From a virus, in IMG/VR virus record IMGVR_UViG_3300017917_003143, positions 2,095-66,094 of that record: a stretch of 64,000 bases of DNA; one strand, 5' to 3'. Of the stretch, positions 31,648 to 50,622 are shown piece by piece. Positions within the stretch are counted from its first letter, which is position 1; the number at the start of each line of letters is the position of its first letter. Both the position numbers and the translations under genes were made by a program. A model generated the notes under the pieces. That model made no database searches. It saw nothing but the letters and a program-made list of their open reading frames with translations, and had not been told where the DNA came from.

Positions 31648-31655
31648 GGAATCTC

Positions 31656-35601: not shown

Positions 35602-36801
35602 ATGAATGAATCGTCTCAATATGAAAATTGCAGTTTTTGTAACAAACACAAAGACGAAGTAAAGAAACTGATAGTTGGCAATGGTGTAGCTATATGCAAT
35701 GAATGTGTCGACCTTTGCCAGAGTTTATTGGATGAAGACATCAAGGAAAGACCCAAGGATCTCACTGACATAGATCCACAAGAACTTAAATCCTATCTTG
35801 ATCAATATGTGATAGGTCAGGATCGCGCAAAGATGGTACTGAGCGTGGCCATCTCCAATCATTACAAGCGAATCCAACATCGCGATTCTGATGTAGAAAT
35901 TGACAAAGCCAACATCCTCATGCTTGGACCCACTGGGTCGGGCAAAACCTTGTTGGCCAAAACTGTGGCACGGTATCTCGACGTGCCGTTTGCCATAGCA
36001 GATGCCACATCTGTGACCGAAGCCGGATATGTAGGCGATGATGTAGAAAGCCTGATCCAGCGCCTGCTTACTGCCGCTGGTGGCGATGTAGAAAAATGCC
36101 AACGTGGTATCATATTTGTCGACGAGATCGACAAGATCGCTCGCAAGAGTGAGTCAGCATCAATCACAAGAGATGTTTCGGGAGAAGGTGTACAACAGGC
36201 CTTGCTTAAAATGGTCGAGGGCACTGTTTGTCGCATACCAGCCGCAGGTGGCCGCAAGCATCCAGGCGGTGAAATGCTTGAAGTTGATACCCGTAACATA
36301 CTGTTTATCGCAGGCGGTGCGTTTGTTGGTCTAGACCAGATAGTTAAAAAACGCATGTACGGTACCAGCATGGGCTTTGGTGCCACAGTGAGCCAACCCA
36401 AAGAAATCAGTCTTGAGCACGTGGTACCCGACGACCTTGTGAAGTTTGGATTGATTCCTGAATTCGTGGGTCGATTCCCTAGCTGGGTCAATCTGGATGA
36501 ACTCACCACAGAAGATCTTATCCATGTGCTCACAGATACTAAAAACTCATTGGTCAAGCAATATCAGCACCTTTTTGCCGCAGACAAAGTCGACCTTGAT
36601 TTTGAGCATGAAGCTCTAGAAACTATCGCGAAGAGATCAGCAGATTTTGGAACCGGTGCCCGTGCTCTGCACAGCGAACTTGAGCGTGTGTTGATGCCAC
36701 ACATGTTCAATATCAAACGCTACCGAGACCGTGGAATAAACCGCGTAGTTATTAACAAAGAACAAATAAATAATCCTACACCCGTTTACAAGGAGGAATA
36801 G
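35602..36801 (+). CDS. clpX: ATP-dependent protease ATPase subunit ClpX
   Basis: N-terminal C4 zinc-binding domain (CSFCNK...CNEC). Walker A GPTGSGKTLLAKT, Walker B IFVDEIDKI, sensor and IGF-loop region. Confidence 0.95.
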   Translation: MNESSQYENCSFCNKHKDEVKKLIVGNGVAICNECVDLCQSLLDEDIKERPKDLTDIDPQELKSYLDQYVIGQDRAKMVLSVAISNHYKRIQHRDSDVEIDKANILMLGPTGSGKTLLAKTVARYLDVPFAIADATSVTEAGYVGDDVESLIQRLLTAAGGDVEKCQRGIIFVDEIDKIARKSESASITRDVSGEGVQQALLKMVEGTVCRIPAAGGRKHPGGEMLEVDTRNILFIAGGAFVGLDQIVKKRMYGTSMGFGATVSQPKEISLEHVVPDDLVKFGLIPEFVGRFPSWVNLDELTTEDLIHVLTDTKNSLVKQYQHLFAADKVDLDFEHEALETIAKRSADFGTGARALHSELERVLMPHMFNIKRYRDRGINRVVINKEQINNPTPVYKEE

Positions 36802-36802
36802 T

Positions 36803-37015
36803 TTGGGAAAAAGTGTAGAAGTCCGCGATGGTAATGTAGAAAAAGCTCTACGAAAATTCAAGAAAAAGATACAGAATTCTGGCCTGTTGTTTGAGTTAAA
36901 AGAACGTGAACAGTATGTCAAGCCCACTACAAGACGCAAGCTCAAAGCATCAGCGGCCAAAAAACGCTGGCAAAAATATCTACGTAGCCAACAGCTTCCA
37001 CCCAAACTGTTTTAA
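36803..37015 (+). CDS. rpsU: 30S ribosomal protein S21
   Basis: VEVRDGNVEKALRKFKKK...YVKPTTRRKLKASAAKKR aligns along the full length with bacterial S21. TTG start after AAGGAGG RBS. Confidence 0.9.
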   Translation: MGKSVEVRDGNVEKALRKFKKKIQNSGLLFELKEREQYVKPTTRRKLKASAAKKRWQKYLRSQQLPPKLF

Positions 37016-37233
37016 TGTACATTGTCTTTGATGTCAGATTCCAGCACGAATTAGACACAGTCAAACAGCAGATAGCCGCCTGGGCTGAACGATATCAAAT
37101 ACAGTACACACAAAAAACCATAAAGTATCAGCACCGCCTTGGGCTCAATCGCGACAAAGAATTCACTCTTTTTTCCATGACTTGGGAAGGCATGCCCTAC
37201 AAAATAGTCAATATCGGCAACGAAGGATATTGA
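37015..37233 (+). CDS. hypothetical protein
   Basis: 72 aa ORF with TAATG overlap with rpsU. Confidence 0.4.
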   Translation: MYIVFDVRFQHELDTVKQQIAAWAERYQIQYTQKTIKYQHRLGLNRDKEFTLFSMTWEGMPYKIVNIGNEGY

Positions 37234-37260
37234 CAATCCCAAGAAAATCTGTTATAAATA
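37230..37260 (+). promoter_or_regulatory. sigma70-like promoter TTGACA-17-TATAAATA upstream of hsp20
   Basis: TTGACA at 37230-37235, 17 nt spacer, TATAAATA at 37253-37260. Followed by a conserved ~50 nt leader shared with the gene at 62250. Confidence 0.65.
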
Positions 37261-37321
37261 TACATGTAGGTGCCGATGGTCGGGCCTACATAGTCAAACT
37301 TGCTTAACAAAGGAGAAAATT

Positions 37322-37762
37322 ATGACTAAACTTACATCTCTAGATCTCACACCTTTCTACCGCCAAGCTATTGGCATTGACAGCCTATTCGATAGACTCA
37401 TGCACAATATCGATGTGGCCAGCTCACAGGCCAATAACTATCCTCCCTACAATATCATTAAAACTGGTGAGGACGCCTATCAAATCCAGATAGCAATCGC
37501 AGGATTTGCCGAAGGTGAAGTGGAGATCAATTTCCACGAAGGACAGCTCGTGATCACTGGTGAAAAGAACACAGATGACAGCGACACACAATATCTACAT
37601 CGAGGTATCAGTGCCCGCAAATTCATCCGTACTTTCCAACTCAGCGATTATGTAGAGGTCAAAGAAGCCGCTATGAAAGATGGTATTTTGACAGTGAGCC
37701 TGCAACGCATTGTGCCCGAAGAAATGAAGCCAAAGCGTATTGCAATCTCCTACGCAAAATAA
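37322..37762 (+). CDS. ibpA: small heat shock protein Hsp20 (IbpA-like)
   Basis: Near full-length match to IbpA architecture: LTPFYRQAIG...YPPYNI...IAIAGFAE...alpha-crystallin domain...KPKRIAI. Confidence 0.95.
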   Translation: MTKLTSLDLTPFYRQAIGIDSLFDRLMHNIDVASSQANNYPPYNIIKTGEDAYQIQIAIAGFAEGEVEINFHEGQLVITGEKNTDDSDTQYLHRGISARKFIRTFQLSDYVEVKEAAMKDGILTVSLQRIVPEEMKPKRIAISYAK

Positions 37763-37823
37763 TATAATAGCGTAAATACAGTGGAGGGCATGTTGCTCTC
37801 CACTCACTTACCAAGGGAAAAAG

Positions 37824-38138
37824 ATGTCAGATACTGCAACCCAGACAAAAACTACAATAAAACCCAGAGAGGATCTCAAAGAGCCTCCGATGTTCAAGGT
37901 GATCTATCTTAACGATAATCAAACTGCCATGGAATTTGTTATAGGAAGTCTGATTGAGCATTTTGATTACAGTCCTGTGACTGCTGAAAAACTCACGATA
38001 GATATCCACGAAGAAGGCTCAGCAGTGGTAGCTGTATTGCCATATGAACTGGCCGAACAAAAAGGCATCGAAGTCACTGTGACAGCCCGCAGTGCAGGCT
38101 ATCCTTTACAAGTCAAGCTCGAGCCTGAATCAGCTTAA
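37824..38138 (+). CDS. clpS: ClpS adaptor protein (N-end rule)
   Basis: PPMFKVIYLNDNQTAMEFVI matches the ClpS core (YKVILLNDDYTPMEFV). 104 aa. Confidence 0.8.
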   Translation: MSDTATQTKTTIKPREDLKEPPMFKVIYLNDNQTAMEFVIGSLIEHFDYSPVTAEKLTIDIHEEGSAVVAVLPYELAEQKGIEVTVTARSAGYPLQVKLEPESA

Positions 38139-38929
38139 ATAACGATCTCTATTCTTTTGGGGTAATACACACTTTTTGACCAAGGTGTGTTTCCTCGGCC
38201 TCGACAGTTGTTGACGTATCTTACACTGCCGCCCAAGTCCGTGTCAACATCACCGTGATAGTGTCCAAAGCACCAAGCCGCGACTTTGTTTTCAGTGTCC
38301 CCGGCCAGTGATCTTAATATGTAGGCATTGCCTGTGGTATTCATGCGATAGGTATCACTGAGCTCAAGATCGTGATTGACCAGTTCTAACATGGGCACAG
38401 TATGTGTGACCAACACTATCTTTTTCACGTCACGATAGGTCTGTAATCGCTGTACAGATTTGGCCAAGTAAGAAAAATCTTGTAGTGCCATGGCTTCAAT
38501 GGCATCGGCTATCTGCCGTGTGGTTTGATATCTATCTTGGAACCAGAGTTTGGTTTGATCGTAATCAATATGGGCATCAAGATCATAGGTCCACCATCCG
38601 TTGGTCCCTAAGAAAGCCACACCGTCTATGATGCATACATTGTCCTGTAGATAGGTAACATTGGGTATGTTTTCCAATTCTTCGGCCAGGCTCTTGTAAC
38701 TTTCACCAAGATCGTCTAAACTATAACGATGTTCATCATTGCCATCGATAAAAAATACGGCTCGATAGCACTCACCCAAGTGGCGCAAAGTATCTACCAA
38801 TATAGTCCGGTCTCTGCTGACATCTCCAGCTACCACACACATAGGGCTGGTGGCCATGCCAGTCCAGTCTATGGGCTCGTCCCATGTTTCGACATGTAAG
38901 TCTGAAATTAAATCAAATGCAAGTTTCAT
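38135..38929 (-). CDS. calcineurin-like metallophosphoesterase
   Basis: GDVSRDR, GNDEHR and GHYHGD metal-binding motifs in canonical order. Confidence 0.7.
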   Translation of the reverse strand: MKLAFDLISDLHVETWDEPIDWTGMATSPMCVVAGDVSRDRTILVDTLRHLGECYRAVFFIDGNDEHRYSLDDLGESYKSLAEELENIPNVTYLQDNVCIIDGVAFLGTNGWWTYDLDAHIDYDQTKLWFQDRYQTTRQIADAIEAMALQDFSYLAKSVQRLQTYRDVKKIVLVTHTVPMLELVNHDLELSDTYRMNTTGNAYILRSLAGDTENKVAAWCFGHYHGDVDTDLGGSVRYVNNCRGRGNTPWSKSVYYPKRIEIVI

Positions 38930-38953: not shown

Positions 38954-39328
38954 ATGCACATAATATTTGGCAGCCAGTCTGCACAAGAAGCCTCGGAAAA
39001 ATACACAGTATTGCCCCTGGATCAGATACAGATAGAACCCAACGGTCCTGTTATTGATACCTACTGTATCATTGAAAAAGAACAGGTCACCTTGGAAGAA
39101 ATTGGGCAGATGGAAAATTTTTCTAAACTGCATGTCAAGCTCATGGAAAATTATCGCAAAAAGAATTGGAACTTTTGTGAACAAGCCTTGGAACACTTGC
39201 ATGGTCGTTGGGGTGGCACAGTAAACACATTCTACGATGAAATTTCTCGCAGAGTAGCTAAGTACAAAGAACAGGACCCAGGTCCGGATTGGAACGGCGT
39301 TTATGAAAAATACAATCGCGGCAATTAG
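38954..39328 (+). CDS. hypothetical protein
   Basis: 124 aa. RBS AAGGAAAT. Confidence 0.45.
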   Translation: MHIIFGSQSAQEASEKYTVLPLDQIQIEPNGPVIDTYCIIEKEQVTLEEIGQMENFSKLHVKLMENYRKKNWNFCEQALEHLHGRWGGTVNTFYDEISRRVAKYKEQDPGPDWNGVYEKYNRGN

Positions 39329-39695
39329 TGTCGCACTTGCACTATCGGCCTGCGCATTATTTCCCAGTTATTTTGACACCAACGAGCAAGCTCGTATCAC
39401 TGATATCATCCTGCTGAGCCAGGATGATTCTGTTTGTAGCCAACCAAACATAGCCACCATCGCACAAGATATAGATCATTCTGCACAGTGGTTGAAAATA
39501 TACAGTGCATCGATCCCACGCAACAATGCACTCACAGACATGACACGCAATCTTGCGGCAGTGACACAGGATTTCAAAAACAGTTACAAACGAGATAAAC
39601 CACCCAGTCAGTTTTATTGTAAATCCAAGATAAAAATAATAAATGAGGCCACGACTCGCATGCTCGAAGTCAGTGGAAGGAGACCCAGATCATGA
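39303..39695 (+). CDS. lipoprotein
   Basis: Signal peptide with lipobox LALSAC. First gene of the curli-like block. Confidence 0.5.
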   Translation: MKNTIAAISVALALSACALFPSYFDTNEQARITDIILLSQDDSVCSQPNIATIAQDIDHSAQWLKIYSASIPRNNALTDMTRNLAAVTQDFKNSYKRDKPPSQFYCKSKIKIINEATTRMLEVSGRRPRS

Positions 39696-39934
39696 GCTTA
39701 ATAGATGTAGTTAATAATTTTTGCAACAGCGAAGGCGAGCTTGGCAATCGTGTTCGCATGGCAGTGAGTTATCGAGATGCCTTGGCACGAGGAGATATCG
39801 ATGATGCTGAGTACCAAGAATTATTGGTTGATTTACAAAGATTAGAGAACATACAACTCAAGGCCGCCGAACTTGATGCGCAAATCGCGTTCAATGAATG
39901 CATTGAATTGCTGAAAAATCTTCCAATTAGATAG
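39692..39934 (+). CDS. hypothetical small protein
   Basis: 80 aa acidic helical ORF with ATGA overlap. Confidence 0.4.
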   Translation: MSLIDVVNNFCNSEGELGNRVRMAVSYRDALARGDIDDAEYQELLVDLQRLENIQLKAAELDAQIAFNECIELLKNLPIR

Positions 39935-40017
39935 TCTTTTCTTGTTCTAGATTAAAAGCCCGGATAACATTTGTCTGTCTCCGATTAAATAATGTAGTCG
40001 AAGTCTAGGAGCAGACT

Positions 40018-40464
40018 ATGAACAAATGGCTGGTCGCCATAATAACAAATCTGATAATGACCAGCATCGCAGTAAGTGGTGAGCTGGTACATCAATTCAA
40101 TAGCCCGTCCTTTAGTGGTCAAGGCTACAGTTCTCACGTCTTGACAATAGAACAATTAGAAGCCACGAGAAAAAAGGCCATAGCCGATGCACAACGAGCG
40201 GCACAAGACAAAGCCGAACGCGATGCAAAAAATACCAACTTGGCCAAGTTCTTGGTCAACGTTGAAAGTCGTATCTACGCACAGCTTTCCAAACAGTTAG
40301 CAGATGCTATGTTTACCGAAAGTGGTGCGTCATCGGGTGCCATGGATTTCCAAGGTACCAATATCAGTTGGGTCAAGACAGGTACAGATGTCACGCTGAC
40401 CATTATGGAATCCAACGGTAATCGCACAGAGATTACAGTACCTATAGCGAGCTTCAGTTTCTGA
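40018..40464 (+). CDS. csgF: curli assembly protein CsgF-like
   Basis: Signal peptide. Mature N-terminus HQFNSPSFSGQG matches the CsgF QFRNPNFGG motif. Adjacent to csgG. RBS AGGAG. Confidence 0.7.
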   Translation: MNKWLVAIITNLIMTSIAVSGELVHQFNSPSFSGQGYSSHVLTIEQLEATRKKAIADAQRAAQDKAERDAKNTNLAKFLVNVESRIYAQLSKQLADAMFTESGASSGAMDFQGTNISWVKTGTDVTLTIMESNGNRTEITVPIASFSF

Positions 40465-41591
40465 TGAAAAAACTACTCATGATCATGCTCGCTACCGCTC
40501 TCTCAGGTTGTGCCAGTTTTCAAATGGATCTGCTCAAAGAAGAACCAGTGGCCGTGGCGCCAAGGCAAGATCTCATTGCCAAGCTACCTGACCTAGATGG
40601 TCCTCCTATAACCATCGCTGTATACGGATTCCGCGACCTTACAGGACAAAACAAAGCCAACGATAAACTGGCCTTGTTTTCCAAGGCTGTCACCCAAGGC
40701 GCAGAAACATTCCTAATCAAGAGCTTACAGGACAGTAAAAATTGGTTCCGTGTTGTAGAGCGTGTGGGTTTAGATAATCTCATCAAAGAACGACAGCTCA
40801 TACGCAACCAGCGTGAAGTTTATGAAGGAAAAGAAGCCAGGCCTCTCAAGCCACTCACTGTGGCCGGTGTGATGATCGAAGGCGGTATCATCGGGTATGA
40901 TTCAAACATACGCTCAGGTGGTAACGGTGCTCGTTGGTTGGGCATAGGAGCTAGCCAGCAATACAGAGTAGATGAAGTCATAATCAGTTTGAGATTGGTC
41001 AGTATCAACTCGGGCGAAGTTCTAATGTCAACCGCTGTGAGCAAGACCATATATTCCACTGCCCATAATGTGGGAGTGTTCAAGTTCTTTGATCAAGGTA
41101 CCAGGAGCCTTGAGTTAGAGAATGGTGCGGCCTTGAATGAGCCCACCACTTATGCTGTGAGAGTGGCCATTGAGCAAGGTGTTTATGAAATGATCATGGC
41201 CGGAGAGAAGAAGGGACTATGGAGATTCCGTACTGAAAAGCCCGCAGTTTCGATAGCCCCTCCTGCTGTCATTGAGGAGAAAAAAGATGATGTCAAACCT
41301 GTTGCAACAGTTGTTGCGCCCGAAGGCACAGAAAAAACAAGAACGGTCGAAGTTGCACCCGCCGCGGTCGCATCAACTAATGTACGAGTACCTAAAACAC
41401 AAACACGACGAGCTACCGTCGTTGAGTGGAGCAACATTAGAAAAAGCCAAGACATCCAAAGCGAAAAAATAACAAATCTTCGCCCAGGAGTCGAGGTCGA
41501 AATTCTAACAGAAGAAAAAAACTTTTATAACGTCCGGGCGGACGGGAAAGAGGGGTGGGTAGCAAAGCGGTTTATTAAGGCACACCAATAA
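40464..41591 (+). CDS. csgG: curli secretion channel lipoprotein CsgG-like with C-terminal SH3b-like domain
   Basis: Lipobox LSGC. VMIEGGIIGYDSNIRSGGNGARWLGIGASQQYRVDEVIISLRLVSINSGEVL closely matches the E. coli CsgG core. Extra C-terminal SH3-like domain. Confidence 0.95.
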   Translation: MKKLLMIMLATALSGCASFQMDLLKEEPVAVAPRQDLIAKLPDLDGPPITIAVYGFRDLTGQNKANDKLALFSKAVTQGAETFLIKSLQDSKNWFRVVERVGLDNLIKERQLIRNQREVYEGKEARPLKPLTVAGVMIEGGIIGYDSNIRSGGNGARWLGIGASQQYRVDEVIISLRLVSINSGEVLMSTAVSKTIYSTAHNVGVFKFFDQGTRSLELENGAALNEPTTYAVRVAIEQGVYEMIMAGEKKGLWRFRTEKPAVSIAPPAVIEEKKDDVKPVATVVAPEGTEKTRTVEVAPAAVASTNVRVPKTQTRRATVVEWSNIRKSQDIQSEKITNLRPGVEVEILTEEKNFYNVRADGKEGWVAKRFIKAHQ

Positions 41592-41617
41592 AAATTATAA
41601 AGTGCCAGAGGAAAAAA

Positions 41618-42256
41618 ATGAAAATGAAATCAAGTATGACAGGCGCTAGTAAGTTGTCGAGTAAATTACTTACCAACTTCATGTTCATAGCCATGATCAG
41701 CAGTACCACCATGGCGGTGGCCAACGAAGTTTACATAGAGCAGGTAGGAGATAATTCTACCATTGCCATCACACAGGATGGTAGCAGTAATCGTATAGGC
41801 ACAGCATTGAATCCAGCTTATATCGGTTCAGGATCCAACACAGTGACCATAGATCAGATCGGCGGAAGCAACGAATTAGACATGATCGTCAATGGATCAG
41901 CCACAAATGTCACAGTCAGTGTGACAGGTAGCAACAACATACAAACCATTGATTGTGGAACCACTGTGTCTGCTGGATGTAGTGGCAGCTCTATCACGCA
42001 GAACATCACAGGCGATAACAACACGCTGGTCGCCAATCTTGGTGGTGGTGCTAATCATACCAGCACTATGAATGTCACTGGTGATTACAACTCTGTGACA
42101 CATACCAGCACCAATACAGGAACAACATCAGCAAATATCACTGTGAGTGGAAATACCAACACTATAGGAGTCACACAAAGTGGCACGACGGCTAAGAGCG
42201 TTACTGTTAATAGCACTGGCAATCTTAACAATATTACTATCAATCAGACCAACTGA
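41618..42256 (+). CDS. curlin-repeat (CsgA/CsgB-like) secreted amyloid subunit candidate
   Basis: Signal peptide. About 6 imperfect ~20-aa repeats of the form Q-x-G-x-x-N-x...-V/I-x-Q-x-G. Confidence 0.6.
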   Translation: MKMKSSMTGASKLSSKLLTNFMFIAMISSTTMAVANEVYIEQVGDNSTIAITQDGSSNRIGTALNPAYIGSGSNTVTIDQIGGSNELDMIVNGSATNVTVSVTGSNNIQTIDCGTTVSAGCSGSSITQNITGDNNTLVANLGGGANHTSTMNVTGDYNSVTHTSTNTGTTSANITVSGNTNTIGVTQSGTTAKSVTVNSTGNLNNITINQTN

Positions 42257-43280
42257 GGCAGCAGTAGGGCGAGTTTCTGAACAAACTGGCCCTACTGAAA
42301 TAGTTAGAAATCAAAAATCATTGCCCAGCCGGGTTAATACCGCTGTTGAAAGCAATGACACCATAATTACTGCTCGGGCAAGGGCACAGTTGACCTTTGA
42401 CGACAATACCACAGTTAAAATAACTGAACAGAGTAAATTGGTCATTGATGATTTTGTGTATGATCCTCGAAAAGGATCAGGCAAGTTAGCACTCAAAATG
42501 GCGCTGGGCACTGCTAGATATGCATCAGGACAGATAGCCAAAAACAATCCACAACAGGTAGCAGTGAAAACACCCACAGCAAGTATCGCAGTTCGTGGTA
42601 CAGACTTTTCCATGACTGTGGATGAGTTAGGTCGTAGTCTTGTGATGTTGTTGCCTAGCTGTGACAACCGAGGCTGTGTCACGGGTGCTATAGAAGTATC
42701 TAACGAAGCAGGTACTGTGTTATTGGAACAAGCATATCAAGCTACCTTGGTCCGGAGTATATCAACACCACCTACTGCTCCTGTGATCGTTTCTATAGAT
42801 CAAGCCAATATCAATAACTTGTTGATTGTTGCTCCACCGCCACAAATCAAACAAGAAGAAATACAACAGGAAACCAAAACAGCTCTGGACATAAATTTCC
42901 TAAACAAAGACTTCTTAAAATACAATGCTTTAGATGAAGACGAGCTTAAAAAATTCAGCGCATTAGACCAAAATTTTCTTGACGGAGAGTTCCTGGTCAA
43001 TATGTTAGACATCAGCAACGCACAGCTGGCCATGAGCCAAGAACAGTTTGCCATGCAGAATCAGATGTTGCCAGGGTACAATGCAGCCACTGAATTAAAA
43101 TATTACATCGATGCTGATGATGACAGCAAGTTAGTGTTAGATAGATCTGTAGGGCACATCGCTAGAGTCATTGTGAATAGAGAACACAATATGATTCTCA
43201 ATATCACACAAGATGGTGTGGCCATCACACAACCGGTAAACCGTAGCGGTTCTACCACAATTACCATCGTACAAAAATAA
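42180..43280 (+). CDS. FecR-domain secreted protein
   Basis: GTG start gives a textbook signal peptide (RRLRALLLIALAILTILLS...TEA-AVG) overlapping the previous gene's 3' end. FecR-like block ASIAVRGTDFSMTV. Confidence 0.45.
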   Translation: MARRLRALLLIALAILTILLSIRPTEAAVGRVSEQTGPTEIVRNQKSLPSRVNTAVESNDTIITARARAQLTFDDNTTVKITEQSKLVIDDFVYDPRKGSGKLALKMALGTARYASGQIAKNNPQQVAVKTPTASIAVRGTDFSMTVDELGRSLVMLLPSCDNRGCVTGAIEVSNEAGTVLLEQAYQATLVRSISTPPTAPVIVSIDQANINNLLIVAPPPQIKQEEIQQETKTALDINFLNKDFLKYNALDEDELKKFSALDQNFLDGEFLVNMLDISNAQLAMSQEQFAMQNQMLPGYNAATELKYYIDADDDSKLVLDRSVGHIARVIVNREHNMILNITQDGVAITQPVNRSGSTTITIVQK

Positions 43281-43361
43281 AAGCTCATAGAATTTAATCA
43301 ATTTTTGCTGTAAATATTTCTAGCACTCTGATAATCAGAATAACAAAACGGGAGCTAGACA

Positions 43362-45356
43362 ATGAGATTTAAACAACTGCTGATGGCCGCGGCCATCGTT
43401 ATGACTTCGTCGGTGTCTGTGGCGCAAAACGCTATACTGATCAACGAATATGTCAAAGCCGGTGTAAACCAAACAACCGGCACCTTGGGTTCAGGTGGCA
43501 ATACCAATCCAGGCATACAGTATGATAGCACAGGCACAGGCACATTCAATGCCGCTTACGACTACCTAACACCTGGATCACCATTTGAAGGATTCACGGT
43601 CAAACTAGATGGCACATCCTATCGCAACAACAACGCAGGCAACCTTGCGCAGATTACAGGCACCTGGACAGGTACACCCACTGCCTCTAGTGCTGTATGG
43701 GACGGTGCTGTGAGTGGAGTGTTTGGATTGAGACATACCTATACTCTAAACTCTGGACAACAGTGGTTAGGCATACAGACTCGTATCACCGTGAACAATC
43801 CAGTGGCCAATATGTATTTTGCTCGTTACATAGATCCTGATGCACGAGCCGCTGCCGGTGACAGCAGTTCTACAGACAATGTGCGTGGTTACTCTGGTAT
43901 TCCTGGAACTAATGTGATATTCTCTGAAGCTTTGAGTTCGCGTTATGCACTAGGATTGTATACCAGCCAGGCCACAGGAACCAACACTGGGCCCAGCAAC
44001 ACCTGGAGCACTGATCCTCAAACTTATTACACAGGAGGAAGTTACACTGTAGGCCAAGGTGACCATACCATTGGTATCGCTTTTTACAGTGCTGGCTTGT
44101 CAGCCGGTGACATAGTGACTTACAACTATGCTTATATCTTTGGTCCTAACGCATTTGGTGCAGCCACAGTGGCCACTACCTCTTATGATCCCAGTGCCAC
44201 ATTTGCTGTGACTGATGTAGGTTCGGCTACTTCTGCCGCAACCACTCCAAGTGCGCCCACAGTGACTGGTACATCTACAGCAACTATAACAGTGAGCGAT
44301 ACCACTTCAGTGAACACAGCGTTGCCCGTGATCACAGGAGCAGTAGCACACCATGTCGCATCAGAAGCCACTGGAGTACAGACTATCGCTCGTGAAACCA
44401 CTACAACAACTACCACTCCTATGCGTCGTGACGTGGTGACCAAAGTACGCACCACAACTACCTACAGTGACAGTACCACAACAACCAGTGACAGTGCTCC
44501 AAGCACAGCCACTACATACAGCAACAGCGTGTCTTCCAGTGTGGCTAACGACAGTTTCTCTGGACGTGTTGATCAGATGAGTGTGTTGAGTGACTTGAAC
44601 TCTGCTATCAATCGTGGTTTGAACATGAACGCATTCCGCGGTGATGGCATACGAGGAGAAACAGGTACGCTATACATCAATGGTGCTGGTAGCAAGACTT
44701 CAGCGGCCAATGGATATCGTGCCACAGGTGACATCTATGGCATAGGCGCCGCTGTTGATGTGGATCGCGACTGGCGTGTGGGCTTGCAGTACAATCGAGC
44801 GCACACTCGTTTGGATGGTACAGACAGTAACACCAAACAGAACAAAGACCATGTTGGCTTGTTCAGCGTTTACAACATCGAAGGTGCTGTGTTAGAAACC
44901 AACATCGGACATGCTCGCAACACTATCTCAAACAATCGACGCATATCTGGCATAGACTTCTCCAACAGTCACAGTACCAACGGTGCAGACACATGGATCA
45001 GTAATCGTTTGTATTCACCTAGCATAGAAGGATTCCGTCCTTTTGTTGGTTACACCACTGGTCGTAGTACAGTCAATGGCTATAACGAAAACGGTAGCAT
45101 ACAGAGTGCTCGCAGTGTGGCCAAGGTCGCAAATAACTATGACTATGGTGAGTTGGGTGTGCGTTATGATGCCCAGATCAATGATTTTGTGTTGAGCGGA
45201 CAAGTGTCAACTACCACAGACAACTTCAAAACAGCTGGAGTGCGTGTGGCCTACAACGTGACCAAAGACGGACAGATCGCTGTGTCAGGCACACGTCAAG
45301 CCTACAACGATCAGACTACCAATACTGTCACAGTAATGGGTGTGGTTAGATTTTAA
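43362..45356 (+). CDS. Thr-rich secreted/outer-membrane protein (beta-barrel C-terminus)
   Basis: Signal peptide. Poly-Thr linkers. C-terminal alternating-hydrophobic strands ending in aromatic ...VMGVVRF, typical of OMP/autotransporter barrels. Confidence 0.5.
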   Translation: MRFKQLLMAAAIVMTSSVSVAQNAILINEYVKAGVNQTTGTLGSGGNTNPGIQYDSTGTGTFNAAYDYLTPGSPFEGFTVKLDGTSYRNNNAGNLAQITGTWTGTPTASSAVWDGAVSGVFGLRHTYTLNSGQQWLGIQTRITVNNPVANMYFARYIDPDARAAAGDSSSTDNVRGYSGIPGTNVIFSEALSSRYALGLYTSQATGTNTGPSNTWSTDPQTYYTGGSYTVGQGDHTIGIAFYSAGLSAGDIVTYNYAYIFGPNAFGAATVATTSYDPSATFAVTDVGSATSAATTPSAPTVTGTSTATITVSDTTSVNTALPVITGAVAHHVASEATGVQTIARETTTTTTTPMRRDVVTKVRTTTTYSDSTTTTSDSAPSTATTYSNSVSSSVANDSFSGRVDQMSVLSDLNSAINRGLNMNAFRGDGIRGETGTLYINGAGSKTSAANGYRATGDIYGIGAAVDVDRDWRVGLQYNRAHTRLDGTDSNTKQNKDHVGLFSVYNIEGAVLETNIGHARNTISNNRRISGIDFSNSHSTNGADTWISNRLYSPSIEGFRPFVGYTTGRSTVNGYNENGSIQSARSVAKVANNYDYGELGVRYDAQINDFVLSGQVSTTTDNFKTAGVRVAYNVTKDGQIAVSGTRQAYNDQTTNTVTVMGVVRF

Positions 45357-45358
45357 TT

Positions 45359-45529
45359 GTTAACGGCCCCAGTTGATTTTCAACCAAAGTCTTTCGTGTA
45401 CATAGTGGACTATAGTCATCACAATGTTGATGGCTATGGCTCCCTGTATACCGGTGAATGCGGCTGTGACTGCTGTTGCTGTGATACGCCATGAGGCAGC
45501 TCTTACGATTGTTCTCTTGTGTGTTTCCA
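45359..45529 (-). CDS. small membrane protein (DUF2061-like), not in ORF track
   Basis: 57 aa METHKRTIVRAASWRITATAVT...HYVHERLW. GGAG RBS 6 nt upstream on the minus strand. Found by reverse-complementing the sequence by hand. Confidence 0.35.
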
Positions 45530-45545
45530 TTTTTACTCCATTAAA

Positions 45546-45575
45546 AAAGCCCCTTACGGGGCTTTGATTATTTCT
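45546..45575. terminator. bidirectional rho-independent terminator
   Basis: AAAGCCCC-ttac-GGGGCTTT hairpin flanked by T runs on both strands. Sits between convergent genes. Confidence 0.65.
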
Positions 45576-46239
45576 TTCTTATTTCTGTTCGATAATACTG
45601 TTTGGCAGTAAGAATCACAGCACCAACGAATGGCAGTATCTTTTCTACAAAATCATGTAGCGGATCATTCCATTTGTCAATAAAAGGTTCGTGTACTATC
45701 ATATTGCCAGCTACGTAATATAAAACAAACGCACCAATATAAATCGTGCTGGGATATTTATCAAGCAGGCGTGAAACCATGGTGCTACCAAACAAGATGA
45801 TAGGTACGCTGACCAGCAAGCCGATAATGATTAGTGTCCAGTTACCACCTGCGGCTCCTGCAATGGCCAAAGCATTGTCTAGACCCATTACAGCATCTGC
45901 CATCACGATAGTGCCCATAGCACCCCAGAAGGTTGCGGCGGCTCGAACATTACTGTGATCGTTATTGTTTTGGGTAAGTTTCCAAGCAATATAGATCAAC
46001 ATGAGTCCACCGACTAGTCTTAGTCCAGGAATCATTAGCAAATAGGTCAGTGCGGCAACACAGGCAAAGCGCACAGCTACAGCACCAAAGGTACCCCAAA
46101 GCATGGCACGTTTGCGTAGGTGTTCTGGTAGTTGCTTAGACGCCATTGCTATGACGAGTGCGTTTTCACCGCCTAAGACAACGTCTATTAAGATAATGGC
46201 CACAAGAGCCCACAAGAATTGAAGCGAGAGTAATTCCAT
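45568..46239 (-). CDS. TerC-family integral membrane protein
   Basis: 223 aa with ~7 TM helices. Conserved TerC blocks (GENALVIAMA; DNALAIAGA). Confidence 0.75.
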   Translation of the reverse strand: MELLSLQFLWALVAIILIDVVLGGENALVIAMASKQLPEHLRKRAMLWGTFGAVAVRFACVAALTYLLMIPGLRLVGGLMLIYIAWKLTQNNNDHSNVRAAATFWGAMGTIVMADAVMGLDNALAIAGAAGGNWTLIIIGLLVSVPIILFGSTMVSRLLDKYPSTIYIGAFVLYYVAGNMIVHEPFIDKWNDPLHDFVEKILPFVGAVILTAKQYYRTEIRKK

Positions 46240-46365
46240 TTTAGTTCCTTTTAAAATTAAAATGGTCTCGTCTCTTTGTTTGTATACCGGGCTGGGCCGT
46301 GTTGACGATATACAAAGCCCGTTATAGGCTGACTACTCCCCGTCAAATATTTAGTTAAATATCTG

Positions 46366-48432
46366 ATGCTGAAAAAATCCACCATTAAAAAACTGTTAGT
46401 TAGCCCTTGGACTGCGCTGATCACATTGGCGCTGATTATTGGATTGAGAGTAGCCGATCCTACTTTTGTAGAAAGTGTAAGACTGCGCTATTTTGATACC
46501 TTGATCACTGCCCAAGAACCCACGACCAATGATATCTACACTGTAAACATCGATGAGGATACTATTGCCAAGTACGGACAGTGGCCGTTTGATCGTCGTG
46601 TGTATGCTAACCTTATTGAAGACTTGTACAAAAGAAATGCTGGTCTAGTCATATTTAATGTTATGATGCCTGAGCGCGATCGGTCAGGCGGCGATGGATC
46701 CTTGGCAGCCACACTCAACGAACTAGATGTCATACTGCCTAACTTGCCTGCAGATCGTATGAAAAATACACCAAGACAGCCGGGCACTGCTGTGATAGGA
46801 GCAGAATTCTCTGATCAGATAGTACAATATCCTGGCATCATAGCCAACATTGACATGCTGGAAAAACGAGCCCGAGGTGTAGGCATAGTGGCTACCTTGC
46901 CTGAAGTGGACGGTGTCAACCGTAGGATGCCTTTGGTCGTGGCAGTGGACGGCAGAGTATATCCCAGCCTGGCCATGGAAGTGTTACGAGTTTCAGCCGG
47001 CGATAGTACCACACAGATCAAGCTCAATGAACTGGGTGTGGAAAAGATGCGCATACCTGCATTTGGCCCCATCGCCACCGACAGCCTGGGACGTATATGG
47101 ATTGACTGGAGCCAGCGCAGTCACAGTGTGTCGGCTGCAAACTTGCCCAAAGATTTTGGTGGTGCTGATGTCATAGTGGGCGTGGCCGCAGGTGGATTAG
47201 GTAATCCTGTGCCCACTCCTCGTGGTGCTGTGTGGCCACATGAAGTACAGGCCGCTGTGATAGCCACAATGTTCAACGGTGTCACGATTGAACGACCTGA
47301 CTATGCTGATGGTGTTGAAATCATATTCATAGCGGTCATAGGATTGATTATTATTGGAATGTCGAGGTGGACTTATGCAGGTATTCTTATATCTATTATT
47401 GGGATCATTGCCCCTATTGTTGCCAGTAGCCTGGCTTACAGTGAATGGCGAATCCTGGCGGACGCGACAGCAAGCACGGTTGGTCTTGTTCTCGTGGCTC
47501 TGCATACTTACGGGGTTAAGTTTGTAAGCGAGTTCTTGCAAAAGCAACAGATCAAAAAACAATTTGGAACTTATCTAAGCCCAGATCTTGTAGCACAACT
47601 GCAACGCAACCCTGATCTACTGGTATTAGGTGGAGACAGTCGTGAGTTAAGTATCATGTTCACAGATGTGCGTGGCTTTACAAGTATCAGCGAACACTAT
47701 GGTAAAGACGTTCAAGGACTTACAAAGATCATGAACCGCTATATGACAGCCATGACTAAAAAGATCTTGGAAAACAAAGGTACATTAGACAAGTACATCG
47801 GTGATGCACAGATGGCATTCTGGAACGCACCCTTGGACAACACACAGCATGCCAAGGATGCTGTAAAAACAGCTTTAGAAATGTTAGGGAGTTTGGATGA
47901 GTTCAATAGAGAAGTTCAAGCAGAAGGCGTACCACCTTTTGGTATGGGCCTTGGGATCAATACTGACACCGTTGTGGTGGGTAACATGGGAAGTGATCAG
48001 CGTTTTGACTATACTTGTCTTGGTGATGGCGTCAATTTGGCTAGCCGACTGGAGGGCCAGAGTAAACCGTACGGTGTCAAAATCGTGGTGGGGGCAAAAA
48101 CTGCTGAATATGTAGCAGACGAATACCTTGTGCTGGAGCTGGATTGTATCGCTGTCAAAGGCAAAAAAGAAGGTGTCAACATCTATACTGTGTTAGGGCG
48201 TATTGATGAGTTAAACATAGCCACCGCTGACATACAGATGCACGAGTCTATGTTGGCGCTGTATCGTCAGCAGAAGTTTGATCAAGCTGCCAAGGCCTGC
48301 AACAACTTGATGGGCCGCTTTGGGGGTGCCATGGATCACTATTATGAAATGTGGATAGAGCGTTGTGGGGAAATGAAGTCTGCTGGCTTGCCCTTAGATT
48401 GGGACGGTATCTATCGAGCAACCAGCAAGTGA
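46366..48432 (+). CDS. CHASE2 sensor domain + class III adenylyl/guanylyl cyclase
   Basis: N-terminal TM with periplasmic CHASE2-like domain. Multi-TM segment. Cyclase catalytic domain (IMFTDVRGFTSISE; KYIGDAQMAFWNAP; metal-binding Asp). Confidence 0.8.
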   Translation: MLKKSTIKKLLVSPWTALITLALIIGLRVADPTFVESVRLRYFDTLITAQEPTTNDIYTVNIDEDTIAKYGQWPFDRRVYANLIEDLYKRNAGLVIFNVMMPERDRSGGDGSLAATLNELDVILPNLPADRMKNTPRQPGTAVIGAEFSDQIVQYPGIIANIDMLEKRARGVGIVATLPEVDGVNRRMPLVVAVDGRVYPSLAMEVLRVSAGDSTTQIKLNELGVEKMRIPAFGPIATDSLGRIWIDWSQRSHSVSAANLPKDFGGADVIVGVAAGGLGNPVPTPRGAVWPHEVQAAVIATMFNGVTIERPDYADGVEIIFIAVIGLIIIGMSRWTYAGILISIIGIIAPIVASSLAYSEWRILADATASTVGLVLVALHTYGVKFVSEFLQKQQIKKQFGTYLSPDLVAQLQRNPDLLVLGGDSRELSIMFTDVRGFTSISEHYGKDVQGLTKIMNRYMTAMTKKILENKGTLDKYIGDAQMAFWNAPLDNTQHAKDAVKTALEMLGSLDEFNREVQAEGVPPFGMGLGINTDTVVVGNMGSDQRFDYTCLGDGVNLASRLEGQSKPYGVKIVVGAKTAEYVADEYLVLELDCIAVKGKKEGVNIYTVLGRIDELNIATADIQMHESMLALYRQQKFDQAAKACNNLMGRFGGAMDHYYEMWIERCGEMKSAGLPLDWDGIYRATSK

Positions 48433-48783
48433 TTAGCCTTCGCCGGCAGAGGCAGTTTTTTTGTCGTCTTCGTCGGCTTTGAGGGCTTCACGGAATTTGG
48501 CATCAGCTTCGCGCTCGGTTTTTTGTTGTTCGATAACACGTTCACCTTCGATGATTTTACCACGAAGATGTAACACAACATCAACCTTTTGATTTAAACG
48601 AATTAAATCATTGTCCAGCATACGGATACGATCGATCAAGGCGATCAGCACAGTATTGGCTTCTTTTAATATGGGTTTAACTTCTTTGGTTGCCCAAGTC
48701 CACACATAGTAAATCATATAACCCATGCCGCCCGCGGCCACGATAGGGAATCCGTATTTGTTAATCAGTGCTACTAAATCCAT
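48433..48783 (-). CDS. holin-like single-TM protein, paralog A
   Basis: N-terminal MDLVALINKYGFPIVAAGGMGY TM segment then coiled coil. Paralogous to 49492..49770. Confidence 0.5.
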   Translation of the reverse strand: MDLVALINKYGFPIVAAGGMGYMIYYVWTWATKEVKPILKEANTVLIALIDRIRMLDNDLIRLNQKVDVVLHLRGKIIEGERVIEQQKTEREADAKFREALKADEDDKKTASAGEG

Positions 48784-48924
48784 TTATTTCTCCTGTTTCC
48801 AAAAACCCCAAGGGTCGTGTATTTTCTTTTGTTCTGGTTTGGGCTCATGACAATACCATATAGCTACTGATATCAAGGTCAGGCATTCTATCAGATAAAA
48901 AACCATAAAAGCTTCAAATAACAT

Positions 48925-49071
48925 TATATTGCAAGCCCTATTAAAGTGCCCACAAATATTCCAACAACAAACGCCTTAAACATATCGATGTCGTACCACA
49001 GTGGTTGATTTTTTAGATATGCTTTGGTATGCGCTGGCAAACTGTCATACCATGTGTCCCATTTACTCATG
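48925..49071 (-). CDS. small C-terminal-TM protein, not in ORF track
   Basis: 48 aa MSKWDTWYDSLPAHTKAYLKNQPLWYDIDMFKAFVVGIFVGTLIGLAI. AAGGAAAT RBS on the minus strand. Confidence 0.35.
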
Positions 49072-49347
49072 TTATTTCCTTTTTAAGATATCAAAAGTAT
49101 CTTGCGGTGTAGGTGCATTTATAAAATGCACAGTGTCGTCTTCTTCGTTGACTATGCCCATTACAGCAGGCCCATAACCACGTACAAATTTTTCCAGCGC
49201 ATCGACTTTGACCAATTGTACCTTTCCGTTGACATTGGTTAGCTTGAAAAGATCACCAGCCTGCCAGCCCAGTTTGTCAATGTTCAACTCTTCGTCCAGG
49301 ATGATGCGATTTTCTGATAAATCCCACGTATAGTCCACGTAGAGCAT
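49072..49347 (-). CDS. hypothetical protein
   Basis: 91 aa ORF in the minus-strand block. Confidence 0.4.
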   Translation of the reverse strand: MLYVDYTWDLSENRIILDEELNIDKLGWQAGDLFKLTNVNGKVQLVKVDALEKFVRGYGPAVMGIVNEEDDTVHFINAPTPQDTFDILKRK

Positions 49348-49491
49348 TTTTCTTCCTTTTTCGTTGTTACAAAATCAACTAATTTCTTGATATTCTTTTC
49401 TTGGTCGTGGTAATCTATGCACATCTGTGTCCACTCGTTCCTGTTGCAAAAAACGTGTGTGCGTTCTTGCGGGGTCCAGGTACGGGGATCT

Positions 49492-49770
49492 TTAGTCACG
49501 TCGGGCATCATTTTTGCCGTCCGCTCTAGCAATACGATTGGTGTCGGGTTTTAAACCCAATGCGTTGCTCACAACGGTATCAATACGGATAACGTCGTGG
49601 TTCATTGTTTTTACACGATTGTCTAGAGCAGTGATTATGCCCGAAAGTCCTTGCACACTGCTCATGACTCCAGCGAGTATGAATTTCAGTGTGAGGAAAA
49701 TGAAGTAACCACCAGCGCATGCCGCCGCGATCGGGAAACCGACTTCGGCCACGAGTTTGAAAAAGTCCAT
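49492..49770 (-). CDS. holin-like single-TM protein, paralog B
   Basis: MDFFKLVAEVGFPIAAACAGGYFIFL TM segment. The following VKTMNHDVIRID block parallels paralog A's IRMLDNDLIRLN. Confidence 0.5.
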   Translation of the reverse strand: MDFFKLVAEVGFPIAAACAGGYFIFLTLKFILAGVMSSVQGLSGIITALDNRVKTMNHDVIRIDTVVSNALGLKPDTNRIARADGKNDARRD

Positions 49771-49851
49771 CTTAGCTCCTTTGATCCTCTTGCGGGATTC
49801 TTTGGAGTATTTACCAAAATCTTGGTGTATTATCTATCAGGCGAAAAAAAA

Positions 49852-49880
49852 TTTGACATCAATGGAAAAATCGGCTAAAA
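49852..49880 (+). promoter_or_regulatory. strong sigma70-like promoter TTGACA-17-TAAAAT
   Basis: Perfect -35 hexamer, 17 nt spacer, TAAAAT -10. 137 nt upstream of the lysin gene in a 246 nt intergenic region. Confidence 0.75.
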
Positions 49881-50016
49881 TATAGCTTGTGTCTGTTTCT
49901 TTTGGAGCGGTTTGATTAAATATAGCTCTTTTGGAAATGTGCGCAGTTATCCGTGGGTGTGTATCTATTACATATTACTACGGTAAAAAAATAAACCTGT
50001 AAACAAGGAGGAAGTT

Positions 50017-50622
50017 ATGACAGAGACAATATCAAAGTCAGGAACGCACCAAGTTGACATGGTCAAACTTTTTGTAAGTCTGCCCCGTGTGATCGGTTTG
50101 TTGATCGTAGCATCGATCCTGATCACAGTCACAAATTTGCGTCTGGATGCTCTTGCGTCCGATATCGAAAGCCAGGCCCAGCGCCAGGGTTTCGTCAGTG
50201 TTAGCGACCGCACTCGTCAGTTAGAGTGCTTGGCTCGTAACATCTATTGGGAGTCCGCCAACCAGCCTTTTGAAGGCAAAGTAGGTGTGGCCCAAGTAAC
50301 CATGAACCGTGTGGATGATGGACGTTTTGGAAAAGACGTCTGCGGTGTGGTATATCAGAAAAACATCATCTATGAAAAGGTAGTGTGCCAATTCTCTTGG
50401 TACTGCGAACCTACTCACAAAGTACGACCCGTACACCCTGCACTGTGGGATGAAAGCATGGAAGTGGCCAAGAAGGTTCTATTAGAAGGATTCCGTCTGC
50501 CCAGCTTGAAAGAAGCTCTTTATTTCCATGCTGACTATGTAAGCCCGGGTTGGCCCAACATGATACGAGTTGCCCATTTCGGCAATCATATTTTCTACAA
50601 GAAAAAGGAATCCAAACAATGA
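50017..50622 (+). CDS. cell wall hydrolase, SleB/CwlJ family, with N-terminal membrane anchor
   Basis: NIYWESANQPFEGKVGVAQVTMNRV...FSWYC hydrolase core. N-terminal TM helix. RBS AAGGAGG. Confidence 0.8.
   Translation: MTETISKSGTHQVDMVKLFVSLPRVIGLLIVASILITVTNLRLDALASDIESQAQRQGFVSVSDRTRQLECLARNIYWESANQPFEGKVGVAQVTMNRVDDGRFGKDVCGVVYQKNIIYEKVVCQFSWYCEPTHKVRPVHPALWDESMEVAKKVLLEGFRLPSLKEALYFHADYVSPGWPNMIRVAHFGNHIFYKKKESKQ

Follow-up and report, generated by a model that had tools for sequence, protein, structure and literature searches.

What would a virus do with the machinery that bacteria use to secrete curli, and where would it have acquired it? The question is raised by a 64,000-nucleotide stretch of the IMG/VR virus record IMGVR_UViG_3300017917_003143 (hereafter the window, to which all coordinates refer as a whole), in which an earlier note, made from the letters alone, had pointed to a curli-like block at 39303-45356 encoding CsgG, CsgF, a curlin-repeat protein, a FecR-domain protein and a Thr-rich outer-membrane protein. 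To characterize this block, we used an open reading frame (ORF) listing, Pfam scans of the ORFs at 38.9-50.9 kb and blast mapping of the window proteins onto 86 fetched loci; viral counts are given below out of 78 IMG/VR loci. A curli-type module is indeed present, and its conserved unit has the order CsgF-CsgG-curlin-FecR-(variable gene)-CHASE2 adenylate cyclase (Table 1). This unit begins at 40018 and extends to 48432, the end of the cyclase gene, and to 49770, where a pair of small membrane-protein genes (p116 and its paralogue) is included. The boundaries first proposed had thus taken in two lineage-specific ORFs upstream and missed both the cyclase and the p116 pair. Our preferred reading, to which we assign a probability of about 0.6, is that the locus is a jumbo-phage version of an already published viral curli module, that is, a captured alphaproteobacterial-type operon which would build surface fibres and produce cyclic AMP (cAMP) in the infected cell.

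A curli-type secretion module and its candidate substrate

The CsgF, CsgG, curlin-repeat, FecR and 664-aa protein genes all lie where the earlier note had placed them, and CsgF, CsgG and Curlin_rpt were all matched in hidden Markov model (HMM) searches. CsgF aligns with PF10614 over profile positions 3-132 of 132 (E 4e-15) and is present in 77 of the viral loci, in which its N-terminal motif is conserved. The conserved N-terminus of the mature protein, ELVHQFNSPSFSG, is expected to be the segment that inserts into the CsgG barrel; a sequence search of the Protein Data Bank (PDB) gave no meaningful match for CsgF. CsgG is matched by PF03783 (E 1.3e-53), carries the lipobox LSGC and aligns over residues 1-257 with the solved E. 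coli CsgG (PDB 3x2r, E 3.4e-48). At 41% identity, 'near-identical core motifs' proved to be an overstatement, and the constriction loop differs: it reads KANDKLALFS in the window against KPYPASNFS in E. coli, and throughout the viral family it has one residue more than the E. coli loop, with the conserved form KP[NS]DKLA[LV]FS. Relative to E. coli, the constriction Tyr is replaced by Asn and the Asn by Leu, while the Phe is kept. Beyond the core, the window CsgG has an extension of 118 aa, made of a Pro/Ala/Val/Thr/Lys-rich linker of ~65 aa and of the SH3b-like domain already noticed in the first reading (SH3_3, residues 324-372, E 2.8e-10). C-terminal extensions of more than 60 aa occur in 30 of 90 aligned CsgG copies, mostly viral, and hold an SH3 domain in the window copy and its close relatives. 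Given the orientation of the published E. coli channel structure, the SH3b domain presumably sits on a periplasmic C-terminus.

The gene that follows encodes the candidate substrate. Its product scores 27 bits with Curlin_rpt (PF07012; curated cut-off 20.7), a family carried by most of the 120 homologues listed, and the gene is found in 73 viral loci. About six Q-x-G-x-x-N repeats had been counted initially; we find two exact motifs and approximately ten relaxed G-x-x-[NST] turns, spaced by ~11 residues. After the signal peptide the protein consists of ~13 strand-turn units with a period of ~11 aa, the first of which, NEVYIEQVGDNSTIAITQDGSSN, fits the CsgA repeat pattern. In an alignment of 33 family members, invariant Q, G and N columns recur every ~11 residues, and the AlphaFold model (pLDDT 82.8, pTM 0.76) is a stack of 14 short strands. 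The alignment also revealed a Cys113/Cys121 pair (DCGTTVSAGCSGS), which breaks the repeat register and is invariant in 33/33 homologues; E. coli CsgA is not known to contain cysteines. The NCBIfam CsgA model matched weakly (1.5e-5, 24.9 bits vs an equivalog cut-off of 160). Because this match is weak and no significant structural match to CsgA was obtained, we do not call the protein an orthologue of E. coli CsgA, and its sequence and model are those of a plausible fibre subunit.

The FecR-domain protein (PF04773, E 7.7e-12) is encoded in 70 viral loci. The GTG at 42180 is the most likely start of its gene, and we favour it because the signal-peptide region so added aligns with homologues. With this start, the fecR signal-peptide coding region shares 77 nt (42180-42256), in another frame, with the 3' end of the curlin gene; in the viral locus L004, the curlin and fecR genes overlap by 59 nt (L004 11855-11913). 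Besides the PF04773 domain, the protein has only a signal peptide, which is cleavable; it is without an anti-sigma domain or transmembrane segment, and no sigma factor or TonB receptor was found in the module by Pfam scans. It therefore shares a domain with the FecR anti-sigma/iron-citrate regulators and is not a member of their family. Its C-terminus (...LNITQDG...TTITIVQK) is reminiscent of that of the curlin protein (...ITINQTN), and a function as fibre cap or nucleator was considered and rejected as unsupported; a profile-profile comparison picks this segment against curlin at E 0.039 with a probability of 1.3%, and a custom curlin-unit HMM run on 66 FecR-like proteins gave 6.0 vs 6.5 for shuffled sequences.

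In the cyclase, a periplasmic CHASE2 domain (PF05226, E 1.4e-36) and transmembrane segments are joined to a class III cyclase domain (Guanylate_cyc, PF00211, E 4.1e-20). The best PDB matches of its catalytic domain are bacterial class III adenylate cyclases, and in alignment to solved cyclases the metal-binding Asp, the Lys/Asp specificity residues and the Asn/Arg residues are intact (motifs FTDVRGFT, DKYIGD and FDYTCLGDGVNLASR). On these grounds the product of 46366-48432 is assigned as a predicted adenylate-type class III cyclase. The gene is present in 55 viral loci, and the remaining loci are mostly interrupted by contig ends.

Between FecR and the cyclase, the variable position is occupied in the window by a 664-aa protein. 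This protein had been described as a Thr-rich outer-membrane protein; an outer-membrane protein it is, and more precisely its family alignment and predicted structure identify it as a classical (type Va) autotransporter. A signal peptide is followed by a beta-supersandwich passenger (~24-261), a Thr/Ser-rich beta-hairpin stalk (~300-402; 44% Thr+Ser over the Thr/Ser-rich stretch), a linker helix (405-420) and a beta-barrel (436-663) that ends with a terminal Phe. The AlphaFold model (pLDDT 79.7) matches autotransporter barrels, and while the protein itself has no Pfam match, the Autotransporter beta-domain is matched by 10 of its 34 aligned family members (best E 8e-14). The passenger adopts in the model a carbohydrate-binding-like fold and is possibly glycan-binding. 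Contrary to NalP, EstA, Hbp and AIDA-I, it is neither a beta-helix nor a protease: it is a mutarotase-like beta-supersandwich carried on a Thr-rich hairpin stalk, and a phage carries its gene inside a curli module. Homologues occur in 22 viral loci, after FecR in ten and between csgF and csgG in eight.

Signal peptides or lipoboxes were read from the translations of all five genes between 40018 and 45356, and of the ORF at 39303. In comparisons with the two closest relatives, the ratio of nonsynonymous to synonymous substitutions (dN/dS) ranges over 0.07-0.14 in csgF and csgG, 0.18-0.24 in curlin, 0.07-0.16 in the cyclase and 0.003-0.07 in p116, and is 0.07 in fecR. Over all module genes these values (0.003-0.24) are comparable to those of clpX and hsp20, and purifying selection acts on every module gene. 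As first noted, equivalents of csgB, csgC, csgD and csgE are lacking, with no Pfam match to any of them among the scanned ORFs; the window contains a single curlin-repeat gene and no separate CsgB nucleator was found, the CsgB model giving a sub-threshold match (E 0.016) to that same curlin protein. Altogether, the family assignments and the conserved order bear out a co-oriented curli, or type VIII secretion, module with a candidate substrate.

Table 1. Features of the module and its surroundings, with positions in the 64-kb window
Feature	Position	Strand	Evidence or remark
Predicted lipoprotein, 130 aa, lipobox LSAC	39303..39695	+	Lineage-specific neighbour, outside the conserved module
80-aa protein, function not assigned	39692..39934	+	Lineage-specific neighbour
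CsgF homologue with signal peptide	40018..40464	+	Pfam CsgF
CsgG outer-membrane lipoprotein channel, linker and C-terminal SH3b	40464..41591	+	Pfam CsgG, SH3_3
Curlin-repeat protein with signal peptide, candidate secreted fibre subunit	41618..42256	+	Curlin_rpt
Secreted FecR-domain protein	42180..43280	+	Pfam FecR; probable GTG start
Predicted classical (type Va) autotransporter, 664 aa	43362..45356	+	Family alignment, AlphaFold model
GC-rich hairpin, likely bidirectional terminator	45546..45565	.	Between the convergent autotransporter and TerC genes
TerC-family inner-membrane protein, variable accessory gene	45568..46239	-	Pfam TerC, E 3.1e-44
CHASE2 receptor adenylate cyclase (predicted), conserved module member	46366..48432	+	Pfam CHASE2, Guanylate_cyc
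p116, 116-aa single-pass membrane and coiled-coil protein	48433..48783	-	phrog_18771, E 7.7e-31
92-aa paralogue of p116	49492..49770	-	Second p116-like ORF
Two small transmembrane ORFs	48784-48924, 48924-49070		Lysis-like cluster
Hydrolase_2 cell-wall hydrolase, N-terminal hydrophobic segment	50017-50622		E 2e-22
130-aa multi-transmembrane ORF overlapping the hydrolase	50550-50942		Lysis-like cluster

That the block sits in a phage, as had been proposed, is indicated by its surroundings. The DnaB-type replicative helicase (8969-10378) is 53% identical to that of Pseudomonas phage PA5oct (287-kb) and 47% identical to that of Agrobacterium phage Atu_ph07, and PHROG matches in the window include phage helicases, ribonucleotide reductase, DNA ligase, endonuclease and virion structural families. 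The genes are almost all co-oriented, tRNA and Rfam RNA scans of the window found none, and its G+C content is 45%. A scan of IMG/VR recovered the 78 viral loci with a related CsgG, the large related contigs being 236-344 kb; an identical CsgG is encoded on a 343,632-bp JGI metagenome contig, and another contig, of 335,011 bp, encodes a copy with 78% identity. In nucleotide searches against deposited phages, window positions 1-25000 had no match and the module region had one 220-bp FecR match only. The clpX, rpsU and hsp20 genes, counted as unmistakable phage genes in the earlier note, are not phage hallmarks, and the viral origin rests on the other evidence given here. No capsid, portal or terminase gene was identified within the 64-kb window. 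The viral assignment is strong but not closed, and the carrier is probably a genome of ~340 kb from an uncultured jumbo-phage lineage, the contig itself having been read over 64 kb.

Many large viral contigs share, upstream of the module, a syntenic block of clpX, ribosomal protein S21, hsp20 and clpS genes (35602-38138 in the window), which was noted for loci L004, L007, L008, L023, L033 and L035. Other lineages carry IMPDH, Hsp70, heme oxygenase and a ferredoxin-dependent bilin reductase at this position.

Published viral modules and chromosomal counterparts

The locus had been presented as a new type of host-surface remodelling system. It is not a new kind of system, because the module is already published for marine phages: the same block is annotated in Pelagibacter phage HTVC008M and Methylophilales phage Melnitz and was discussed in papers of 2020-2022. 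What is new is the probable jumbo-phage lineage, the CsgG-SH3b fusion, the autotransporter and TerC. In GenBank, HTVC008M and four Melnitz genomes encode CsgF, CsgG and curlin-repeat proteins, then an adenylate cyclase, in the same order as in the window; the intervening FecR protein is annotated as such in Melnitz only and as 'hypothetical protein' in HTVC008M. Among 50,697 deposited phage genome records, CsgG matches were restricted to HTVC008M and Melnitz, plus an unannotated 1.5-kb Salmonella record. A curli operon was described in pelagimyophages, with 'sibling capture' as its proposed origin (PMC7029224, 2020), and the CsgG/CsgF complex of Melnitz was later modelled and given a possible role in lysis timing (PMC9004378, 2022). 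The full module (HK, CsgF, CsgG, CsgA/B, FecR, a second CsgA/B and the cyclase) was then reported in podo- and myophages (PMC9599517, 2022); its pelagiphage versions are reported to be transcribed in the ocean, where viral curli modules are abundant (~0.1% of assembled viral proteins), an alphaproteobacterial origin was reported, and CsgE, CsgC and CsgD are absent from the alphaproteobacterial and viral versions too (PMC9599517). Aggregation, superinfection exclusion and pore roles have all been discussed for the viral module (PMC7029224, PMC9004378, PMC9599517).

The homologous blocks in HTVC008M-type pelagimyophages, HTVC023P-type podophages and Melnitz (PMC7029224, PMC9004378, PMC9599517) share with the window the genes and their order, from the small membrane protein(s) through the adenylate cyclase. 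In the HTVC008M/Melnitz type, CsgG is 46-48% identical to the window copy and FecR ~40%, and there are likewise no CsgB/C/D/E-type genes besides the curlin proteins. HTVC008M is a 140-kb T4-like pelagiphage, whereas the carrier of the window, with a G+C content of 45% and replication genes of jumbo-phage type, is predicted at ~343 kb. Contrary to HTVC008M and Melnitz, the window CsgG bears the 118-aa extension that ends in SH3b, and the autotransporter and TerC genes stand in place of their second curlin-repeat gene; p116 lies upstream of csgF in those phages, whereas the p116 pair of the window is downstream, on the opposite strand and beside a cell-wall hydrolase gene. Compared with the csgBAC and csgDEFG operons of E. 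coli and Salmonella, the window shares the CsgG core with its lipobox (41% identity) and a full-length Pfam match for CsgF, but lacks CsgB, CsgC, CsgD, CsgE and an N22-like segment, and has the FecR/CHASE2-cyclase pair in place of CsgD-type control.

The basic published picture of viral curli modules is unchanged by the window locus. Going beyond the literature that we searched, many contigs of probable jumbo phages, the largest of 344 kb, carry the module. It is not confined to phages of streamlined SAR11/OM43 hosts and is also found in what is probably a large clade of uncultured jumbo phages; the CsgG extension with its SH3 domain, the autotransporter and the alphaproteobacterial operons with FecR and cyclase are further additions. 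PMC9599517 makes no mention of an autotransporter, SH3, TerC or jumbo phages, and a literature search on curli in jumbo phages found nothing relevant.

We next looked for the module in bacteria, scanning one genome per species with the FecR-family alignment as query, and obtained ten loci, all in metagenome-assembled genomes (MAGs). Two loci in Henriciella (one on a 396,755-bp contig) and two in Caulobacteraceae have a G+C content of 52-57% and no p116. The order csgF-csgG-curlin(-curlin)-fecR-CHASE2 cyclase is the same in three of them (L091, L092 and L095), and the fourth (L096) ends upstream of the curlin gene. Their flanks are FAA hydrolase, FAD oxidase, 2OG oxygenase and TonB-dependent receptor genes in Henriciella, and TetR, amidohydrolase, acyl-CoA dehydrogenase, DsbA and B12-binding protein genes in Caulobacteraceae. 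These operons share with the window the order of the five core genes, CsgG and cyclase proteins that are 43-46% and 42-44% identical to its own, and a constriction loop as long as that of the phage copies, with one residue more than in E. coli. They differ in the absence of p116, SH3b, autotransporter and TerC, and in curlin proteins that are longer or duplicated. In L092, a metallophosphoesterase gene is found immediately upstream of csgF; the metallophosphoesterase of the window (38135-38929) is unrelated.

The gene content of these loci indicates that FecR and the cyclase belong to at least some bacterial curli operons. Because alphaproteobacterial chromosomes share the gene order, both look ancestral to this operon type, and since they are included in alphaproteobacterial operons, the statement that FecR and the cyclase lie outside bacterial type VIII secretion operons (PMC9599517) must be qualified. 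The alphaproteobacterial operons also offer a tractable bacterial system for the role of FecR and the cyclase in curli secretion. The other six loci (L087-L090, L093 and L094), in MAGs labelled Flavobacteriaceae, Pelagibacter, Rhodobacteraceae, Legionellales, Pirellulales and Parvibaculum, were rejected as bacterial operons. They are probably mis-binned phage DNA, because their contigs are short and low in G+C and p116 is present in five of them; the sixth is a truncated Parvibaculum fragment with FecR and cyclase genes only and no p116.

Proposed surface fibres and cAMP signalling, and competing explanations

How might such a module operate in an infected cell? If the preferred reading holds, the Sec and Lol pathways would bring the CsgG lipoprotein to the host outer membrane during infection, where it would assemble into an oligomeric channel and receive the conserved CsgF N-terminus in its barrel. 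The curlin-repeat protein would be secreted unfolded and form beta-solenoid fibres on the cell surface. In the lineage of the window, periplasmic SH3b domains would anchor the channel to peptidoglycan and the autotransporter would show its carbohydrate-binding-like domain on the Thr-rich stalk, while the secreted FecR-domain protein and the CHASE2 cyclase would act as a periplasmic sensing pair that makes cAMP. The net effect could be a phage-directed remodelling of the surface of the infected cell, leading to stickiness, aggregation or receptor masking.

Precedents exist for the proposed sensing pair. In a Burkholderia biofilm operon, a LysM-FecR protein is encoded beside a CHASE2 histidine kinase (PMC5192318). 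In S. meliloti, CyaD1 (SMc02176) adjoins SMc02177, a FecR-domain protein; CHASE2 cyclases drive cAMP-dependent regulons in this species and deletion of CHASE2 renders the cyclase constitutive (PMC5498481). Both cases resemble the window in that a secreted FecR-domain protein is encoded beside a membrane receptor with a periplasmic CHASE2 domain, and their output is tied to surface or biofilm phenotypes; CyaD1 in addition has the same CHASE2 and class III cyclase architecture. They differ in that those loci are not reported to hold type VIII secretion genes, and in Burkholderia the output is a histidine kinase, not a cyclase. Such pairs are known side by side from their genes, and direct interaction within them is putative in every system.

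Several observations weigh against the surface-fibre and cAMP reading. A Foldseek search with the curlin model returned no significant match (best SufBD beta-helix, E 0.25; CsgA fibril 8enq, E 0.4), so that the general beta-solenoid class is all that can be claimed for this protein, and a PDB search with its sequence gave no meaningful match. E. coli CsgA has an N-terminal targeting segment, N22; in the window protein the repeats begin directly after the signal peptide and no N22-like segment precedes them. No CsgB-like nucleator is found in the window. Because the constriction residues of CsgG differ, substrate specificity could also differ from that of E. coli. Fibre, pore and cAMP production are predictions for every viral copy of the module, and domain families are what suggests both the tethering of CsgG to peptidoglycan and the interaction of FecR with CHASE2. 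Finally, no clumping was seen in Melnitz-infected cultures (PMC9004378).

A broader form of the preferred reading is offered tentatively. FecR and the CHASE2 cyclase may be ancestral in the alphaproteobacterial curli class, where they would couple a periplasmic check on subunit export to cAMP. The whole unit would then have been captured by jumbo phages and extended with a peptidoglycan-tethered CsgG, a lectin-like autotransporter and the phage-only small membrane proteins, giving a virus-run stickiness or a shield from other phages.

Alternatively, CsgG and CsgF could act on their own, as a gated outer-membrane pore, similar to a secretin or pinholin, that helps to time or execute lysis, with curlin being incidental. 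We find this doubtful. The module does adjoin the p116 pair, the small transmembrane ORFs, Hydrolase_2 and the multi-transmembrane ORF, an arrangement also seen in L008, and no CsgE gate was found among the scanned ORFs. The adjoining cluster lends a little weight to lysis timing, but the idea leaves the subunit gene and the bacterial operons unexplained: the curlin-repeat gene is kept in 73/78 viral loci and is under purifying selection, and bacterial chromosomes carry the same operon without lysis genes or p116. In addition, an outer-membrane pore is unable to depolarise the inner membrane. A lysis role has been proposed for Melnitz (PMC9004378); in Melnitz and HTVC008M, however, the p116 homologue adjoins csgF, not an annotated lysis gene.

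It is also unlikely that the module is centred on signalling, in which case cAMP from the CHASE2 cyclase would reprogram host or phage expression and the secretion parts and FecR would serve mainly to produce an envelope signal or pass it on, more than to build a working surface fibre. FecR and the cyclase are indeed kept with the module in phages and in bacteria, the cyclase motifs are intact, the two genes have the lowest dN/dS among the secretion-module genes when compared with L009 (the closest IMG/VR relative; ~0.07), and the S. meliloti CHASE2 cyclases, constitutive upon CHASE2 deletion, set a precedent for the control of cAMP regulons. However, a lone cyclase needs no channel, cap or repeat protein, all of which are under selection, Pfam and PHROG scans of the window found no cAMP receptor protein, and some podophage modules are without the cyclase (PMC9599517).

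An ungated CsgG pore might instead admit cofactors, siderophores or other solutes to the periplasm of the infected cell, as suggested in PMC7029224 and PMC9599517, and we consider this improbable. The lack of a CsgE homologue among the scanned ORFs and the classical link of FecR-type domains to iron-citrate signalling would fit with uptake, but CsgF, the curlin protein and the autotransporter, all conserved, would be left unexplained. Moreover, true FecR regulators have anti-sigma and transmembrane parts that the FecR-domain protein is without, and where partners of FecR-domain proteins are documented in other bacteria, these are CHASE2 sensors and not TonB receptors. In the window lineage, a putative peptidoglycan-binding domain on CsgG and an autotransporter predicted to display a carbohydrate-binding-like domain point to the envelope and surface, and not to lysis or uptake.

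Last, it is hardly credible that the window is a bacterial chromosome segment or chimeric assembly with an ordinary curli operon: cellular-type genes (clpX, rpsU, hsp20, clpS, isocitrate lyase, ribonucleotide reductase, UDP-glucose dehydrogenase), the lack of an identified capsid, portal or terminase gene and the existence of the same operon on bacterial chromosomes would agree with it, but the helicase, the PHROG families with virion structural members, the near-uniform gene orientation without tRNA or Rfam RNA, the 78 viral contigs (some up to 344 kb) that share the module and the clpX-S21-hsp20-clpS synteny, and the phage-specific p116 pair, absent from bacterial loci, all speak for a virus.

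The variable cassette, the p116 pair and other window genes

In L009 there is no autotransporter and the cyclase follows FecR directly. Because they are missing in this locus, the autotransporter and TerC behave as an insertion cassette. The segment of ~3 kb that holds them (43281-46365) is absent from L009, and L008 has a metallophosphoesterase and a glycosyltransferase at this place. Mosaicism is also apparent in comparison with L009, the cyclase being 94% identical and CsgG 82%. The TerC gene is found in L004-L006 and is missing from L007-L009. The strong hairpin between the autotransporter and TerC genes is formed by AAAGCCCC-TTAC-GGGGCTTT, after which comes a T-rich tail. A promoter scan of the window gave promoter-like sites at a frequency no higher than that in shuffled sequences.

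Homologues of p116 are present in 54 viral loci and the second p116-like ORF, of 24-31% identity, in 28; in Melnitz and HTVC008M a p116 homologue lies immediately upstream of csgF. The window p116 is 100% identical to that of L009 at the amino-acid level while 59% of the synonymous sites differ (pS 0.59; dN/dS 0.003), showing that it is under extreme constraint. It has no Pfam or NCBIfam family, and its PHROG family is of unannotated function. p116 matches 349 clusters at 50% identity, the best 150 listed being 53-209 aa long and without kinase fusion. By its position only, p116 is probably the 'HK' gene of PMC9599517. We rejected p116 as a histidine kinase: no HisKA/HATPase_c domain and no Pfam or NCBIfam family was found, and all listed homologues are short, so that the name 'histidine kinase', given in the literature to this small companion, has no sequence support. 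It was also rejected as a known holin, having no Pfam or NCBIfam family and an uncharacterised PHROG family. The lysis-like cluster beside the module spans 48784-50942 and has the same layout in L008.

Upstream of csgF, the ORFs at 39303-39934 are regarded as lineage-specific neighbours because they occur in only two or three of the viral loci. The first matched no Pfam, PHROG or NCBIfam family, has homologues in three loci and shows a dN/dS of 0.09-0.15; the second has a homologue in two loci and a sub-threshold SHOCT match in the Pfam scan.

Elsewhere in the window, further cellular-type or uncharacterised genes encode a radical SAM protein (10352-11434, minus strand), a DUF6267 protein (phrog_455, 12336-14222), an SPFH/Band 7 protein (31560-32453) and UDP-glucose dehydrogenase (52010-53245). 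An isocitrate lyase is encoded at 25438-26649 (Pfam ICL, E 2.7e-100), a glyoxylate-shunt enzyme that is an unusual auxiliary metabolic gene for a phage.

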